DNA from: Nitrospirota bacterium
Lineage (GTDB): Bacteria > Nitrospirota > Thermodesulfovibrionia > Thermodesulfovibrionales > JdFR-85
DNA: 40,014 nucleotides
Assembly: GCA_013152195.1 (NCBI GenBank)
Contig: JAADGU010000012.1
Location: 1-40,014 of the forward strand
Reading direction: 5' to 3'
Shown: positions 10,145 through 33,694 of the stretch, piece by piece
Layout: every line of letters begins with the position of its first letter
Position numbering within the stretch: the stretch's first letter is position 1
Notes under the pieces: generated by a model
The model's database searches: none
The model's input: the letters and a program-made list of their open reading frames with translations, nothing else
Told to the model about the DNA's origin: nothing
Program-made: the position numbers and the translations under genes

Positions 10145-10870
10145 ATGGAAGAACGAATTCAAAAGATACTCGCAAAAATGGGCATTGCCTCAAGGCGCAA
10201 GGCGGAAGAACTCATCCTTGAGGGCAGGGTGGTTGTAAACGGAAAGGCAGCTGTTCTCGGGATGAAGGTGGATCCTGAGAGGGACCACATCAGGGTTGAC
10301 GGCAAGCTTTTGCGCGGGTCTGAGCCAAAGGTCTACATCATACTTAACAAACCTCCCGGTGTTCTTACAACCCTTGAAGACCCCGAAGGCAGGCCAACGG
10401 TGCAGCAACTTCTCGGGAGGCTGAAGTTCAGGGTATACCCTGTCGGGAGGCTTGATTTCAATTCAGAGGGATTGCTGCTGCTGACAAATGACGGAGATCT
10501 TGCCTACAGGATAATCCATCCTTCCCACAAGATACCCAAGACGTATCTTGTAAAGATAAAAGGGGTGATAGAGGAGAAAGATATCAGCAAGCTGCGCAAG
10601 GGCATAAGGCTTGATGATGGCATGACTGCACCCGCAAAGATAAAGAGGGTCCGGGCGCCCAGGGCAGAGAAGAACTCATGGCTTGAAGTCACGATTTATG
10701 AAGGCAGGAAGAGGCAGATAAGGAGGATGTTTGAGCGGATGGGGCATACTGTGCTGAAACTCAGGAGGATCAGGATTGATGGTCTTGGTCTTGGGGAGCT
10801 CAGGACAGGACAGTGGAGATATCTGGATGAGGTTGAGGTGAAGAAACTGAAGAAGAGTCTTAAAATGTAA
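10145..10870 (+). CDS. rluB: 23S rRNA pseudouridine synthase, RsuA/RluB family
   Basis: N-terminal S4 domain (RIQKILAKMGIASRRKAEELI) and the catalytic block GRLDFNSEGLLLLTNDGDL. Confidence 0.88.
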   Translation: MEERIQKILAKMGIASRRKAEELILEGRVVVNGKAAVLGMKVDPERDHIRVDGKLLRGSEPKVYIILNKPPGVLTTLEDPEGRPTVQQLLGRLKFRVYPVGRLDFNSEGLLLLTNDGDLAYRIIHPSHKIPKTYLVKIKGVIEEKDISKLRKGIRLDDGMTAPAKIKRVRAPRAEKNSWLEVTIYEGRKRQIRRMFERMGHTVLKLRRIRIDGLGLGELRTGQWRYLDEVEVKKLKKSLKM

Positions 10871-10903
10871 AGTAAAAAGTGGATTCAGAGATGAACGGTT
10901 GTT

Positions 10904-11035
10904 GGAAACGATAAGATAGAGTCTTCACTCATTCTCGATGGACATCGTGTCCATCTCCGAGGGAATTTCACAATTCACCATCCGGGTGAATTTACTGCGA
11001 AATTAAAACCGTTCAGACTCTATCATATCGCTTCC
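10904..11035. repeat. structured intergenic element, copy 1 (21-bp closing stem, two inner stem-loops)
   Basis: Shares the blocks ATAGAGT, TTCACTCATTCTCG, CTCCGAGG, AATTT, TCACCATCCGGGTGA, AAACCGTTCA and ACTCTAT, in the same order, with 22286-22435. The stems are kept by compensatory changes (see findings). Confidence 0.75.
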
Positions 11036-11168
11036 TTCCCTTGCGAGAGACTTTTTGTCGTTGTATTTGCGTAAAACATAACCGGAGTTATGGAGAGCTG
11101 GAGAATTGGATTTTTCATTGCTCCAATACTCCAATGCCCCATTACTCCATAAAGACTCAGGAGGTATC

Positions 11169-12953
11169 ATGTACAGAGACAGGAATTGCGGAGAGGTTGG
11201 AGAGGCTGACATTGGTAAGGAACTTACCCTTTCGGGCTGGGTCTTCAGGAGACGTGACCATGGGGGGCTGATATTTGTTGACCTGAGGGACAGGAGCGGC
11301 CTTGTGCAGGTGGTATTCAGTCCGGACGTCTCTTCAGAGGCCCATGAGTCAGCCCATCTGCTCCGTTCAGAGTTTGTCATAAAGGTGAGGGGTAAGGTGA
11401 GCAGAAGACCTGAGGGTACGGAGAACCCCGATATCCCGACCGGTGCAGTTGAGCTCTATGCTGAGGAGTTGAATATATTGAGCAGGTCCGAGACACTGCC
11501 TTTTGTGCTGGAAGAGGCAGCGGATGTGTCCGAGTCCCTGAGGTTCAAGTACCGCTATCTCGACCTCAGGAGACAGGAGATGCAGGGGAATCTTGTATTC
11601 AGGCACAGGGTTACAAAGCTCATGCGCGACTATCTTGACAGAGAGGGTTTTATCGAGATAGAGACCCCCATGCTTACAAAGTCAACCCCTGAGGGTGCAA
11701 GGGACTATCTGGTGCCGAGCCGTCTCAATCCGGGCCAATTCTACGCCCTGCCGCAGTCCCCTCAACTCTTCAAGCAGATCCTGATGATGTCAGGGCTTGA
11801 AAGGTATTTTCAGGTCGTAAAGTGTTTCAGGGATGAGGACCTGAGGGCGGACCGTCAGCCCGAGTTTACGCAGGTTGATATGGAGATGTCATTTGTTGAG
11901 CCCGATGATGTGATCTCGGCGATTGAAGGGATGTTGTCCCACCTCTTTAAGGAGACCCTTGGGGTTGAGATAGAGACCCCCATGCTGCGTCTCTCTTACA
12001 GGGATGCAATGGAGCGTTTCGGCTCTGACAAGCCTGATCTCAGGTTTGGCCTGGAGCTCAGGGAGATGGGTGACCTTGCCCGGGAGGGAAGCTTTAAGGT
12101 CTTCCTCTCTGCCCTTGACTCAGGCGGCAGGGTAAAGGCCGTGTGCGGCAAGGGGATGGCCGGGCTCTCAAGAAAGGAGATGGACCTGCTGACGGAAGAG
12201 GTGCAGTCCTTTGGAGCAAAGGGGCTGGCATGGATAAAGATTAAAGACGGGTTTGAATCACCCATAGCGAAGTTTTTCCCTGAAAATGTCCTGAAGGAGA
12301 TGGCCCTGAGGCTTGAGGCAGAGGAGGGCGATATAATGCTCTTTGTGGCAGACAGGGAGGACGTGGTGCTTGATGTCCTTGGCAGGCTGAGGCTTGAGAT
12401 AGCAAGGAGGCAGGGCCTTGTCTCTGATGGCTTCAGGTTTCTCTGGGTTGTCGATTACCCACTGCTTGAGTGGGATGATGAAGGCAACAGGTTTCAGGCA
12501 ATGCACCATCCCTTTACATCACCCGCAGATGCCGATATGGAGAGGATGCTTGGAGAGGACATAAATGATGACCGCAATGGGCTGGCTTCTCTCAGGGCAA
12601 AGGCATATGATATAGTGCTTAACGGTAATGAGATCGGTGGCGGCAGTATACGTATTCACAACCCGGAGGTCCAGAGCAGGATGTTTGATGTCCTCGGGAT
12701 ATCAGAGGAAGAGGCAAGGATGAAATTCGGTTTTCTCCTTGATGCCCTTCGCTTTGGCGCTCCTCCTCACGGGGGTATTGCCCTGGGGCTTGACAGGCTT
12801 GTAATGCTCATGGTTGGCGCAAGCTCTATCAGGGACGTTATAGCCTTTCCCAAGACACAGAAGGCCGTCTGCCTGCTCAGCGGGGCCCCCTCACCAGTGG
12901 ATGAGAGGCAGTTAAAAGACCTTCATATCAAGCTGGACGCAGTCGTGGAGTAA
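11169..12953 (+). CDS. aspS: aspartate--tRNA ligase (class IIb)
   Basis: OB-fold N-terminus [24 protein letters not shown]. Has [26 protein letters not shown] and [11 protein letters not shown] 11169 sits just after AGGAGG (11159-11164). Confidence 0.95.
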
Positions 12954-22285: not shown

Positions 22286-22435
22286 GCTGGAAAGGGAGAC
22301 GGGTATAGAGTTTTCACTCATTCTCGTTCCGGCGTCCGGCCGGGACTCCGAGGAATTTATCACGTCTCACCATCCGGGTGAGACAAAAGTGATAATTGAA
22401 ACCGTTCAAACTCTATACCCGTCTCCCTTTCCAGC
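22286..22435. repeat. structured intergenic element, copy 2 (perfect 28-bp closing stem)
   Basis: 22286-22313 is the exact reverse complement of 22408-22435. The interior is collinear with copy 1 and has the same conserved blocks. Confidence 0.8.
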
Positions 22436-22675
22436 AGTTGAGATGTTTTCTATCGACAACCCCGGGGATAGAGTGAAAAGGTTTTTAAACATGATCCCCT
22501 TGTATGTCTGTTTCCTGTGAAGCATTAAGCTATTGAAAATCAAGGGATATGGTATCATTATACTCCTCGCTATATTTCGTTTCTGCTTGCCGGGGCAGGG
22601 TTATTGAACCGGCAAACAAATAAACAGTTTCAAGCGGGTTAAAAGTTTCTTGTACAAACAGAAAAAACGATATAT

Positions 22676-22739: not shown

Positions 22740-23795
22740 ATGGCAAAGGTAGTGGTTGGAATGAGCGGAGGAGTGGATTCCTCTGTTACGGCATATTTGC
22801 TCAAAGAGCAGGGCCATGAAGTAGCAGGGATCAGCTTTATGCTGTGGGAGGCCCGGGAGAGGACGGACTTCAGGACGTGTTGTTCCCTTGAGGCAATAAA
22901 CGGGGCGGCTGAGACGGCAAAGGCACTCGGAATTACTCACAGGGTGATTGATGTCAGGGGGGATTTTATAGATAAGGTCATAGAGCCGTTTGTCGATGGT
23001 TATCTGCACGGAATAACACCAAATCCCTGTGTGCTCTGTAATCTCCATATCAAGTTCCCTTATCTTCTGAAAGAGGCCGAGAGAATCGGCGCTGAATTTA
23101 TTTCCACCGGGCATTATGCAAGGGTGGAGAGGGTTGACGGGCATTGTCTCCTGAAAAAAGGGGTTGATCCGGTCAAGGACCAGACGTATTTTCTTTATGT
23201 GCTGAACCGGGACACCCTGTCCAGGCTGCTCTTCCCCCTGGGACTTTACACAAAAGAGAGTGTGAGGGAGATTGCAAGGGGACTGAAACTCCCTGCTGCG
23301 CAAAGACCCGAGAGTGTGGAGATATGCTTTATCCCGGAAGGTGACTATCCGTCTTTTATCAGCAATCTCGTTCCCGAAGCAGTAAAACCAGGCCCGGTTA
23401 TAGGGCCTGAAGGCAATGTGCTGGGTACGCATAAGGGGATATTTAATTATACCGTGGGACAGAGGCGGGGGCTTAATATCTCTTCTGCCGAACCACTCTA
23501 TGTGATAAAGATAGACCCTGAAAACAATGCAATTCATGTGGGGTCAAGGGAGATGGCATTTAAAAGGGAGATGAAGGTGGGGGATTTGAACTGGATTGCT
23601 CCGCCTGTTAACAGGGTAACGGCAAAGATCCGCTCCATGATGAGGGATGAGGCAGCAGTGCTCTTAATGGAAGAGAGCGGGGATATGGTAAAACTGGTCT
23701 TTGACGAACCCCAGTGGGCTCCTGCCCCCGGGCAGAATGCCGTCTTTTACAGAGGTGATGTGGTGCTTGGCGGAGGAATCATTCAGCGGGATTAA
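22740..23795 (+). CDS. mnmA: tRNA-specific 2-thiouridylase
   Basis: PP-loop VVVGMSGGVDSSV, NPCVLCN, GHYAR and VKDQTYFL. 351 aa. Confidence 0.95.
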   Translation: MAKVVVGMSGGVDSSVTAYLLKEQGHEVAGISFMLWEARERTDFRTCCSLEAINGAAETAKALGITHRVIDVRGDFIDKVIEPFVDGYLHGITPNPCVLCNLHIKFPYLLKEAERIGAEFISTGHYARVERVDGHCLLKKGVDPVKDQTYFLYVLNRDTLSRLLFPLGLYTKESVREIARGLKLPAAQRPESVEICFIPEGDYPSFISNLVPEAVKPGPVIGPEGNVLGTHKGIFNYTVGQRRGLNISSAEPLYVIKIDPENNAIHVGSREMAFKREMKVGDLNWIAPPVNRVTAKIRSMMRDEAAVLLMEESGDMVKLVFDEPQWAPAPGQNAVFYRGDVVLGGGIIQRD

Positions 23796-23801
23796 ATAGA
23801 A

Positions 23802-23938
23802 TCTGTGTATAAACATCACAATTGAGCCGTCATTCCCGCAGTCTGTTGAGCGGGAATCCAGTCTTTGCAGTGAGTTCTGGATACCCCGAACGTTTTCGGG
23901 ACATGACTAAAATAAAAAAACATTAGTTTATACACAGA
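23802..23938. repeat. nested palindromic element between convergent mnmA and crp (13-bp outer inverted repeat enclosing three hairpins)
   Basis: TCTGTGTATAAAC (23802-23814) pairs with GTTTATACACAGA (23926-23938). Inner hairpins: 23832-23857 (8 bp, ATTCCCGC/GCGGGAAT), 23858-23880 (4 bp; a fifth pair would need T23857, which closes the first hairpin) and 23885-23900 (6 bp). Confidence 0.7.
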
Positions 23939-23954
23939 CATTAAATAAGTGCAC

Positions 23955-24665
23955 TTAATCTGTAAGCTCATCAATATCTTCAAACAGCTTGGGAGATAAC
24001 ATAAACAGATCCCCGTTTTCAGTTATAAGATTACCTGACACGAGCCTTTTTATAACTTTCGAGATGGATTCCCTTGATGCCCCGATTCTCTCTGCAATTT
24101 CCTTATGTGTTCGTTTCTTGATCAGGTAGAAGCCGTTTTTTTTCTTCTTCCCCTCGTCTTTTATAAGCTTCTTGAATAACTTGACCAATCTTTGATGGAC
24201 AGCAAGGAAGGCAAGACTTTCCTCCCTTTCGGTTGCATTTCTCAGTCTCTGCACAAGAGACTTCAGAAGATCGATTGCAATCTCGGGGTCCTCTTTAATT
24301 GCATCAAGAAACCTGTTTCTCTCTAAAACTGCAAAGATTGAATCCTCTTCTGCTGTGACTGAAGCAGAACGCGGATTACCATCAATAAGGCTCATTTCCC
24401 CAAAAAAATCACCCGGGTTGAGATCTGTCAGTACAAACTCGTCTCCCTCCTCGCTCAACAGGGTTACTTTGACCTTGCCCTCAAGAATTATGTACATATC
24501 GGTGCTCTTGTCAGTCTGATAAAATACCGTTTCTCCTGCACGAAAAGTATGAATGGTAAAGTCATTAATTATCTGCTCCACACGTTTATCCGAAAGATTT
24601 CTGAATGCAGGAATTTCCTTCAGGAACTTCCCGACAAGAAGCTTGTCCTTTTCTTTTAAGATCAT
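23955..24665 (-). CDS. Crp/Fnr-family cyclic-nucleotide-binding transcriptional regulator
   Basis: cNMP-binding barrel (FFGEMSLIDGNPRSASVTA) and a C-terminal HTH (THKEIAERIGASRESISKVIKRL). Confidence 0.9.
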   Translation of the reverse strand: MILKEKDKLLVGKFLKEIPAFRNLSDKRVEQIINDFTIHTFRAGETVFYQTDKSTDMYIILEGKVKVTLLSEEGDEFVLTDLNPGDFFGEMSLIDGNPRSASVTAEEDSIFAVLERNRFLDAIKEDPEIAIDLLKSLVQRLRNATEREESLAFLAVHQRLVKLFKKLIKDEGKKKKNGFYLIKKRTHKEIAERIGASRESISKVIKRLVSGNLITENGDLFMLSPKLFEDIDELTD

Positions 24666-24773
24666 GGATTATACCTGCAGTTTTTTATTTGTATATACCC
24701 GAACCCGGAGATAAACAGTTTTTGGATGTGATATGTTTATGGTTTTTTATCACTGGACCCCGGTATTACAAGG

Positions 24774-33547: not shown

Positions 33548-33694
33548 GGCATGACATGGCCGAATTTCAGAAAAATTTCCGGGGTCTGACGGTCGATTGC
33601 TTCCGCGTTGATAAAAACATTGCCCACAGTATCAGGTTATCATTCTGGCTTAAAGGACTATTCAAAGTTTTCTGAAGTTCGGTTATGTCATGCC
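33548..33694. repeat. 147-nt element bounded by a 27-bp imperfect inverted repeat
   Basis: GGCATGACATGGCCGAATTTCAGAAAA (33548-33574) matches the reverse complement of 33668-33694 at 24 of 27 positions. The right arm covers the hisH stop codon and last two codons. Confidence 0.7.

Follow-up and report, generated by a model that had tools for sequence, protein, structure and literature searches.

The intergenic element between the gene for an RluB-like pseudouridine synthase (10145-10870, + strand) and aspS (+ strand) quite probably belongs to a previously unannotated family of non-autonomous repeats that are dispersed between the genes of Thermodesulfovibrionia and of related bacteria not yet cultured, and that are probably mobile. 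The family resembles MITEs, REPINs and ERIC elements and is classed here as a new MITE/REPIN-like repeat. The 40,014-nt stretch of Nitrospirota DNA that was analysed (the window) contains this copy, a second one between an Usp-like gene (- strand) and mnmA (+ strand), and a truncated third one, and the family as a whole, as counted by pattern scans and a covariation model, exceeds 200 copies.

From the two longer copies alone, the earlier note had argued for a selected structure and against a decaying repeat. The structure is real, and its stems covary throughout the family. The contrast with a repeat was mistaken, as the element belongs to a multi-copy dispersed repeat family. The next sections describe the window copies, the evidence for the fold and for its dispersal, and the explanations that compete for them.

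The copies in the window

Copy 1 is a complete unit of subfamily A that occupies approximately 10879-11071; the ATG of aspS, by our own reading of the sequence, follows at 11169. The features of the three copies are the following.

10879..10903, + strand: copy 1, left outer arm (family consensus, column conservation and terminal-repeat matches in 20-26 copies)
10904..10924, + strand: copy 1, 5' strand of P1 (19 of 21 paired with 11015-11035; P1 pairs covary across the family)
10924..10937, + strand: copy 1, 5' junction string TTCACTCATTCTCG (family form TTCRCTCATTCTCG)
10933..10962, + strand: copy 1, P2 (base helix CTCG/CGAG, CTC bulge, apical hairpin 10937-10955)
10955-10962, + strand: copy 1, conserved CTCCGAGG at the end of P2 (in essentially all matches)
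10964..11004, + strand: copy 1, long hairpin P3 (lower helix AATTTCAC/GCGAAATT, upper helix ATTCACC/GGTGAAT, loop ATCCG)
11005..11015, + strand: copy 1, 3' junction string AAAACCGTTCA (family form AANCCGYTCA)
11015..11035, + strand: copy 1, 3' strand of P1 (inverted-repeat pairing with 10904-10924)
11036..11071, + strand: copy 1, right outer arm (spacer and degenerate terminal inverted repeat CTTTTTGTCGTTGTATTTGCG, consensus CTTTTTATCGCTGGATCCGGG)
22286..22435, + strand: copy 2, of another subfamily (P1 is a perfect 28-bp helix, 22286-22313 with 22408-22435)
22436..22467, + strand: copy 2, putative right outer arm AGTTGAGATGTTTTCTATCGACAACCCCGGGG (likeness to the subfamily-A right arm, from consensus comparison)
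24698..24763, + strand: third copy, truncated (terminal-repeat scan; BLAST matches to the left arms of L048, L050, L074 and L184)

Every feature that the earlier note had described in the two longer copies is present where it had been placed. The two 21-nt strands that close copy 1 are 90% complementary, the hairpins GATGGACA-tcg-TGTCCATC and AATTCACC-atccg-GGTGAATT can be read in its sequence, and copy 2 consists of the same blocks in the same order (5' junction at 22313-22326, CTCCGAGG at 22346-22353, 3' junction at 22398-22408). The paired changes between the copies were also described correctly, namely TAA/TTA to CTG/CAG beside CACC/GGTG and gagtCt/aGactc to gagtTt/aAactc in the core. What did not survive is their interpretation as compensatory evolution in place, as the differences instead separate two subfamilies of one repeat population, copy 2 having its subfamily mates in L003, L015, L038 and L068.

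The left outer arm of copy 1 consists of a terminal inverted repeat that has degenerated (GGATTCAGAGATGAA, family consensus CCCGGATCCAGCGATAAA) and a spacer, and this arm is conserved in the family (consensus CCAGTGATAAATGGTTGTTGG). The segment 10886-10900, which had been regarded as a separate inverted fragment hinting at mobility, lies inside it. The element itself is probably mobile, as had been suspected, but the fragment cited for this is merely its outer arm. For copy 2, reading the sequence against the family consensus gave no clear left arm. In the third copy, located between a Crp-like gene (- strand) and a CHASE2/cyclase gene (+ strand), both outer arms and the beginning of the P1 5' strand remain, and the core and the P1 3' strand are deleted. 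A covariance model built from other copies detects the sites of copy 1 and copy 2 with E = 1e-27 and 7e-33, respectively.

Size and distribution of the family

A scan of 185,579 species genomes with the exact pattern TTCACTCATTCTC-N55-85-AACCGTTCA returned 82 stretches. One of the 82, from Solirubrobacteraceae, is a chance match in which the rest of the motif is missing. The remaining ones are spread over about 21 assemblies, nearly all of them Nitrospirota/Thermodesulfovibrionia MAGs; a single MAG each of Nitrospinota and Candidatus Giovannonibacteria is also among them. Copies with the exact core are numerous in single MAGs (23 in BTTF01, 13 in CAZXDE01, 12 in QIJG01, 8 in BDTQ01 and 7 in JAADGG01), and contig ends are a frequent location, which is expected of a repeat that breaks assemblies. 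The covariance model, built from 48 copies, recovered all of the real pattern matches and, in the same loci, extra copies that fall outside the exact pattern. A metagenome scan anchored on the 5' junction and CTCCGAGG only gave at least 120 matches; in the first 100 of these at least 120 loci, 111 copies were verified with the model, and on several contigs there were two or three. No copy was detected in the plasmid, phage and viral collections searched.

The earlier note had not recognised a known RNA family in the element, and this stands: the Rfam 15 covariance models gave no match on either strand and no match at gathering score over the whole window, nothing meaningful for both strands of copy 1 and of a minimal copy when the threshold was relaxed to E<=10, and no match over the element in 11 further loci. 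The families covered include the hammerhead, twister, pistol, hatchet, T-box, HEARO and IS605-orfB motifs. One of the loci collected around copies of the repeat carries a ZMP/ZTP riboswitch (L073:47-135, RF01750, 60 bits) that is unrelated to the repeat. Literature searches on Thermodesulfovibrio and Nitrospirota yielded no description of such repeats.

Anatomy and covariation of the unit

Read on the + strand, the unit is P1–TTCRCTCATTCTCG–P2–CTCCGAGG–P3–AANCCGYTCA–P1', a three-way junction; it is about 105-200 bp long and places a conserved branched centre on a long quasi-palindromic stem. P1 (15-28 bp) is variable in sequence, P2 combines the base helix CTCG/CGAG and a CTC bulge with a variable apical hairpin, and P3, which ranges from 20 to more than 60 nt, varies between copies as a set of discrete module types. 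Toward the junction, P1 is extended by a U-A pair, the tandem mismatches U.C/C.U, an R-Y pair and a C-G pair. The R-Y pair (R26-Y117) is A-U in most copies and G-C in 9 of the 10 copies found without pattern bias, which is a clean compensatory switch within a seemingly unpaired junction, and in two copies the tandem mismatch is replaced by Watson-Crick pairs (TGAA for TTCA).

The palindrome usually extends beyond P1. In the Thermodesulfovibrionia subfamilies the unit measures 185-210 bp and has the ends CCCGGATCCAGCGATAAA ... TTTATCGCTGGATCCGGG, with 18-nt terminal inverted repeats CCCGGATCCAGCGATAAA at both ends of subfamily A/B copies; the outer inverted repeats of other lineages are unrelated to these. 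Conservation is reversed in comparison with a textbook MITE, the branched centre being common to lineages whose arms and ends have nothing in common, which suggests that the centre, and not the ends, is what is recognised.

The fold of copy 1 is more stable than expected from shuffled sequences (z = -6.2 on the + strand and -7.6 on the - strand), with none of 200 shuffles equally stable. At the family level, the fold is established by the covariation found in three analyses. Among 104 copies of the genome set, 93% of the cells are paired, against 36-42% for slid partners, and 47 of the 51 pairs show changes on both sides; the corresponding values for the more diverse metagenome set (108 distinct copies) are 91%, 34-45% and 45 of 51. 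An independent run of RNAalifold on a MAFFT alignment found compensatory changes at 35 of 43 pairs. Because the first scan fixed 22 junction bases, the invariance of the junction is partly due to the search pattern. Views free of this bias show limited variation, with a 3' junction AANCCGYTCA and bystander copies that differ at one or two positions, and CTCCGAGG, although outside the first search pattern, is present in essentially all matches. Across the subfamilies, the stems covary and the junction strings stay constant.

Strand asymmetry and orientation

The strand described in the earlier note is not the better folder. With RNA parameters, the complement is the more stable of the two in 171 of the 192 distinct copies and the mean difference is -6.6 kcal/mol; with DNA parameters, the count is 162 of 192. 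P2 and P3 are symmetric, and the asymmetry is due to P1 together with the junction. An A.C mismatch on the written strand is a G.U pair on the complement, and the P1 mismatches of the written strand are A.C rather than G.U by 111:20 in the genomes and 154:37 in the metagenomes. Likewise, the complement has a tandem G.A where the written strand has the invariant UC/UC, and this tandem stands in a YGAR context, which favours sheared G.A pairs. A background mutational skew is an unlikely source of the wobble asymmetry, which runs against the G-rich skew of the coding strand and is confined to P1. As an alternative, G.T-specific repair acting on a hairpin of the written strand may lie behind the asymmetry.

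Between co-directional genes, the written strand is co-oriented with the genes in 58 of 71 copies (82%) and opposite in 13, and the bias is significant in both sets (p = 5e-4 and 7e-5). Because the written strand is mostly co-oriented with the flanking genes, the better-folding strand is usually absent from host transcripts. Local GC skew tracks the coding strand, and biases of replication and of transcription are not separable by it.

Genomic context

The copies occupy unrelated intergenic sites next to ordinary housekeeping genes. They are strictly intergenic and often start no more than tens of bases past the upstream stop codon; convergent gene pairs outnumber divergent pairs as sites (34 vs 19), and some copies lie between the genes of apparent operons, e.g., in L076. 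At many subfamily-A copies (e.g., L010, L067, L079, L001, L046 and L053) the upstream ORF often stops at a TAA or TGA inside the left end GTGATAAA, so that the host gene takes its final codons and its stop from the repeat.

When the ORFs lying up to 2.5-4 kb from about 200 copies were clustered, only housekeeping clusters came out, with no recurrent partner and no transposase; the window contains no transposase, and in about 1.4 Mb of loci around copies no adjacent transposase was found, nor any gene framed by the ends of the element. Genes enclosed between paired copies are housekeeping genes as well. Since no autonomous partner or transposase was found, the case for mobility rests on the distribution of the copies and on the indel differences described below.

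Gain, decay and exchange of modules

Closely related genomes differ in the presence of the element. L174 and L173 are separated by a 172-nt indel that contains it, with flanks that are 98% identical, and the element is present in L031 and L095 but absent in L038 and L024, respectively. The first of these comparisons also speaks, as one clean case, against the idea that the core inserts into pre-existing host hairpins, because L173 lacks a hairpin at the empty site, and the 172 nt inserted in L174 include a P1 of their own.

The site between rluB and aspS was traced in relatives by a homology search from the RluB of the window, for which there was no exact-protein match. The element is present at this site in L083 (97% RluB identity), and in genomes with 82-84% RluB identity only fragments are found, such as 12 nt that match the P1 3' strand in L084 and outer arms with a degenerate 5' junction in L086. 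Between the window and L083, divergence amounts to 6.8% for P1 plus core, 6.2% for the adjacent intergenic DNA, 10.3% for third codon positions of rluB and 24% for the outer arms; the orthologous copy has thus changed about as fast as the intergenic DNA beside it. Compared with the inferred ancestor GGAAGCGATATGATAGAGTC, both lineages have acquired uncompensated mismatches in P1. Truncated copies occur as well, among them the third one of the window.

Copies at orthologous sites differ by swapped whole modules (L010/L079 and L048/L050). A perfect 18-nt palindrome, TCCCGAAGTACTTCGGGA, stands in place of the 5' half of P3 and breaks this helix in L079 compared with L010 and in L050 compared with L048. 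The same replacement of the 5' half of P3 by TCCCGAAGTACTTCGGGA was noted in L050, L051, L072 and L079 (L079:852-942), and also in L048, L054 and L061, and the palindrome forms the P2 apical hairpin of L075 and L066; it behaves as a module that moves among copies. In two other copies (L063:5184-5275 and L074:181-273) the loops are reverse-complemented with unchanged stems, P3 having TGGAT for ATCCA and P2 AGGAC for GTCCT, which bears the signature of a DNA-level inversion between stem arms. Module swaps and flipped loops are recombination events at the DNA level between or within copies.

The short strings shared by the flanks of one and the same copy (e.g., TTGAA, GATAA, ATAA) are longer than those of shuffled pairs (3.62 vs 2.97, p<0.0005), although the boundaries are uncertain and AT-rich flanks inflate the chance similarity. 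This is a weak sign of target duplications some 3-5 bp in length, and such duplications would fit a DDE cut-and-paste enzyme and not a single-strand Y1/HUH enzyme.

Comparison with known mobile elements

With MITEs the family shares the many dispersed copies, the short non-coding unit and, in subfamilies A/B, common terminal inverted repeats (CCCGGATCCAGCGATAAA), other lineages having different inverted ends; it differs in that no parent insertion sequence with the same ends occurs in the approximately 1.4 Mb of loci. REPINs, which depend on RAYT tyrosine transposases, are also short, non-autonomous, multi-copy and intergenic, fold over their entire length into a long hairpin as ssDNA or RNA, and persist as populations of evolving subfamilies whose mobilising gene is unlinked. 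Compensatory changes in the hairpin are frequent in this non-autonomous mobile DNA (PMC3116915). However, REPINs have conserved ends (two inverted REP units of 20-40 bp; 16-mers) and a variable spacer, opposite to the conserved centre and variable arms described here. Moreover, no tag of the GTAG/CGTC type was noticed by eye in the element, and its subfamilies have terminal inverted repeats and possible target duplications. The pattern of conservation, as read from the compared copies, is therefore the reverse of that of a classical MITE or REPIN, and this counts against the explanation that is otherwise the best.

ERIC/IRU of enterobacteria, Correia/NEMIS of Neisseria and BOX/RUP of pneumococci are imperfect palindromes of 100-200 bp with inverted ends, modular interiors and a transcribed intergenic location, and orientation-dependent effects on flanking mRNAs have been reported for them. 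They have no sequence similarity to the element and belong to a different phylum; the element has no known parent insertion sequence, and its three-way-junction core is shared by lineages with unrelated ends. Two reviews deal with this class of bacterial MITEs that fold as RNA (PMC2229807, PMC3184786).

Recognition of hairpins on a folded single strand in place of duplex ends, as in the palindrome elements derived from IS200/IS605, would explain the covarying stems, the strand asymmetry and an orientation bias. IS200/IS605 elements themselves lack terminal inverted repeats and target duplication, insert beside a fixed tetra- or pentanucleotide and have two similar hairpins, unlike the element, which has inverted ends, dissimilar P2 and P3, and a better-folding strand that is antisense to its neighbours. 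Single-strand transposition of this type is biased toward the lagging-strand template, and an antisense better-folding strand does not fit such a bias. Integron attC sites offer another parallel, since their structure rather than their sequence is kept and a single folded strand is the substrate; longer attC sites can also have a branched centre. In contrast to attC, the stem of the element ends without RYYYAAC/GTTRRRY core sites, there are no cassette arrays, and the neighbours are housekeeping genes in both orientations.

Several other classes were considered and rejected. A manual comparison of the complement junction with the hammerhead core shows an extra nucleotide, an A for C3, and position 14 engaged in the covarying Watson-Crick pair. 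An intrinsic terminator would need a U-tract directly behind its stem, yet 5 or more T among the 8 nt that follow the extended stem were found in only 5% of the 180 copies. A retron ncRNA is not supported by the flanking genes (rluB/aspS and usp/mnmA), with no adjacent reverse transcriptase and no recurrent neighbour.

Origin of the fold and alternative explanations

The dispersed mobile-repeat explanation can be put into steps. An enzyme whose gene lies elsewhere in the genome would recognise a folded single strand, ssDNA or RNA and most likely the complement of the written strand. Propagation would depend on this recognition, and only copies that keep the fold would go on multiplying. As proposed, this last point would account for covariation without any host function at a single locus. 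The host would tolerate mainly insertions downstream of genes with the strongly folding strand outside its transcripts, whereas insertions that place a very stable hairpin in operon transcripts would be removed by selection. The orientation bias could, instead, reflect an RNA function at the host level. A bolder proposal, unlikely but with some weight, is that the three-way junction, with the tandem G.A of the complement and the covarying R-Y pair, may be the recognition or catalytic module of an undescribed structure-dependent mobile element, defined by its centre and mobilised by an enzyme that is not linked to it and has folded ssDNA as its substrate, or else a new ribozyme or other RNA in a retro-type cycle; the junction module is common to Nitrospirota, a Nitrospinota MAG and a MAG of the candidate phyla radiation.

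In another explanation, the element might be a cis-acting RNA module that benefits the host from 3' UTRs and intercistronic regions, acting on the co-transcribed strand as a stabiliser, a processing site or a protein platform, as proposed for REP/ERIC. The gene orientation of 82% of the copies between co-directional genes, the strictly intergenic position often tens of bases from the upstream stop codon, the preference for convergent over divergent sites (34 vs 19), the copies in apparent operons (L076) and the conservation of the junction nucleotides in distant lineages all agree with it. However, of the two strands the co-transcribed one folds less well in 171 of 192 copies, its P1 has A.C mismatches and the tandem U.C/C.U, and the stem has no U-tract behind it (the 5% given above); furthermore, the orthologous copy decays without compensation and distant relatives hold remnants only, near-identical genomes differ in the presence of the element, and P3 is broken by module replacement in several copies. 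Such a module is distinctly improbable. A further explanation sees in the copies a family of genes for small RNAs, or else for an RNA of a catalytic or retro-mobile type, that are expressed from the complement, with G.U pairs in P1 and a tandem of sheared G.A pairs on the junction side. The stability difference (171 of 192), the wobble asymmetry (154 vs 37), the change of UC/UC to GA/GA in a YGAR context and the covarying R-Y junction pair would follow from it, but folding as ssDNA gives the same asymmetry (162 of 192 with DNA parameters). A scan in and beside the window copies found no sigma-70-like promoter and no terminator, no linked reverse transcriptase or other gene was found, and the Rfam ribozyme and RNA families give no match even at E<=10, all of which makes this RNA very unlikely.

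The position of both window copies upstream of tRNA-related genes on the same strand would be expected of a leader or riboswitch of aspS and mnmA. This hypothesis has practically no chance of being correct and is refuted by the distribution of the copies, hundreds of which lie beside unrelated genes, many of them between convergent genes or downstream of genes; in addition, neither a T-box nor any other Rfam family matches, and relatives at 82-84% RluB identity have an aspS upstream region without the element. If the dispersed mobile-repeat explanation is right, the copy between rluB and aspS is a passenger and not a regulator of aspS.

Other repeats in the window

The window contains further repeats. 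Between the convergent folK and a glutamine amidotransferase gene lies a different inverted repeat (33548-33694), with 31-nt arms that are 87% complementary and 85 nt apart; its arm mismatches are G.T on the + strand, and an 81%-identical homologue (L082:2417-2559) adjoins a copy of the main element, so that it probably represents a second repeat family. An inverted-repeat region downstream of mnmA (23781-23959), with 34-nt arms that are 71% complementary, has BLAST homologues in L095, L096, L143 and L197, one of which adjoins a copy of the main element, and is probably another repeat family. Finally, the coding sequence of aspS contains an exact 20-nt direct repeat, GAGATAGAGACCCCCATGCT, at 11655-11674 and 11967-11986, 312 nt apart.

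Significance

If the classification is true, a well-supported structured interspersed repeat family is added for a phylum in which apparently none has been described. Seen as two copies alone, such a repeat can be mistaken for a riboswitch or a small RNA, and it breaks MAG assemblies, as the many copies at contig ends indicate. Its anatomy, with a constant branched centre, arms that are free in sequence but paired, a strand asymmetry and a strong orientation bias, would make it a good test case for the recognition of folded strands by mobile-DNA enzymes, and also for covariation that arises from selection on the element and not on the host.
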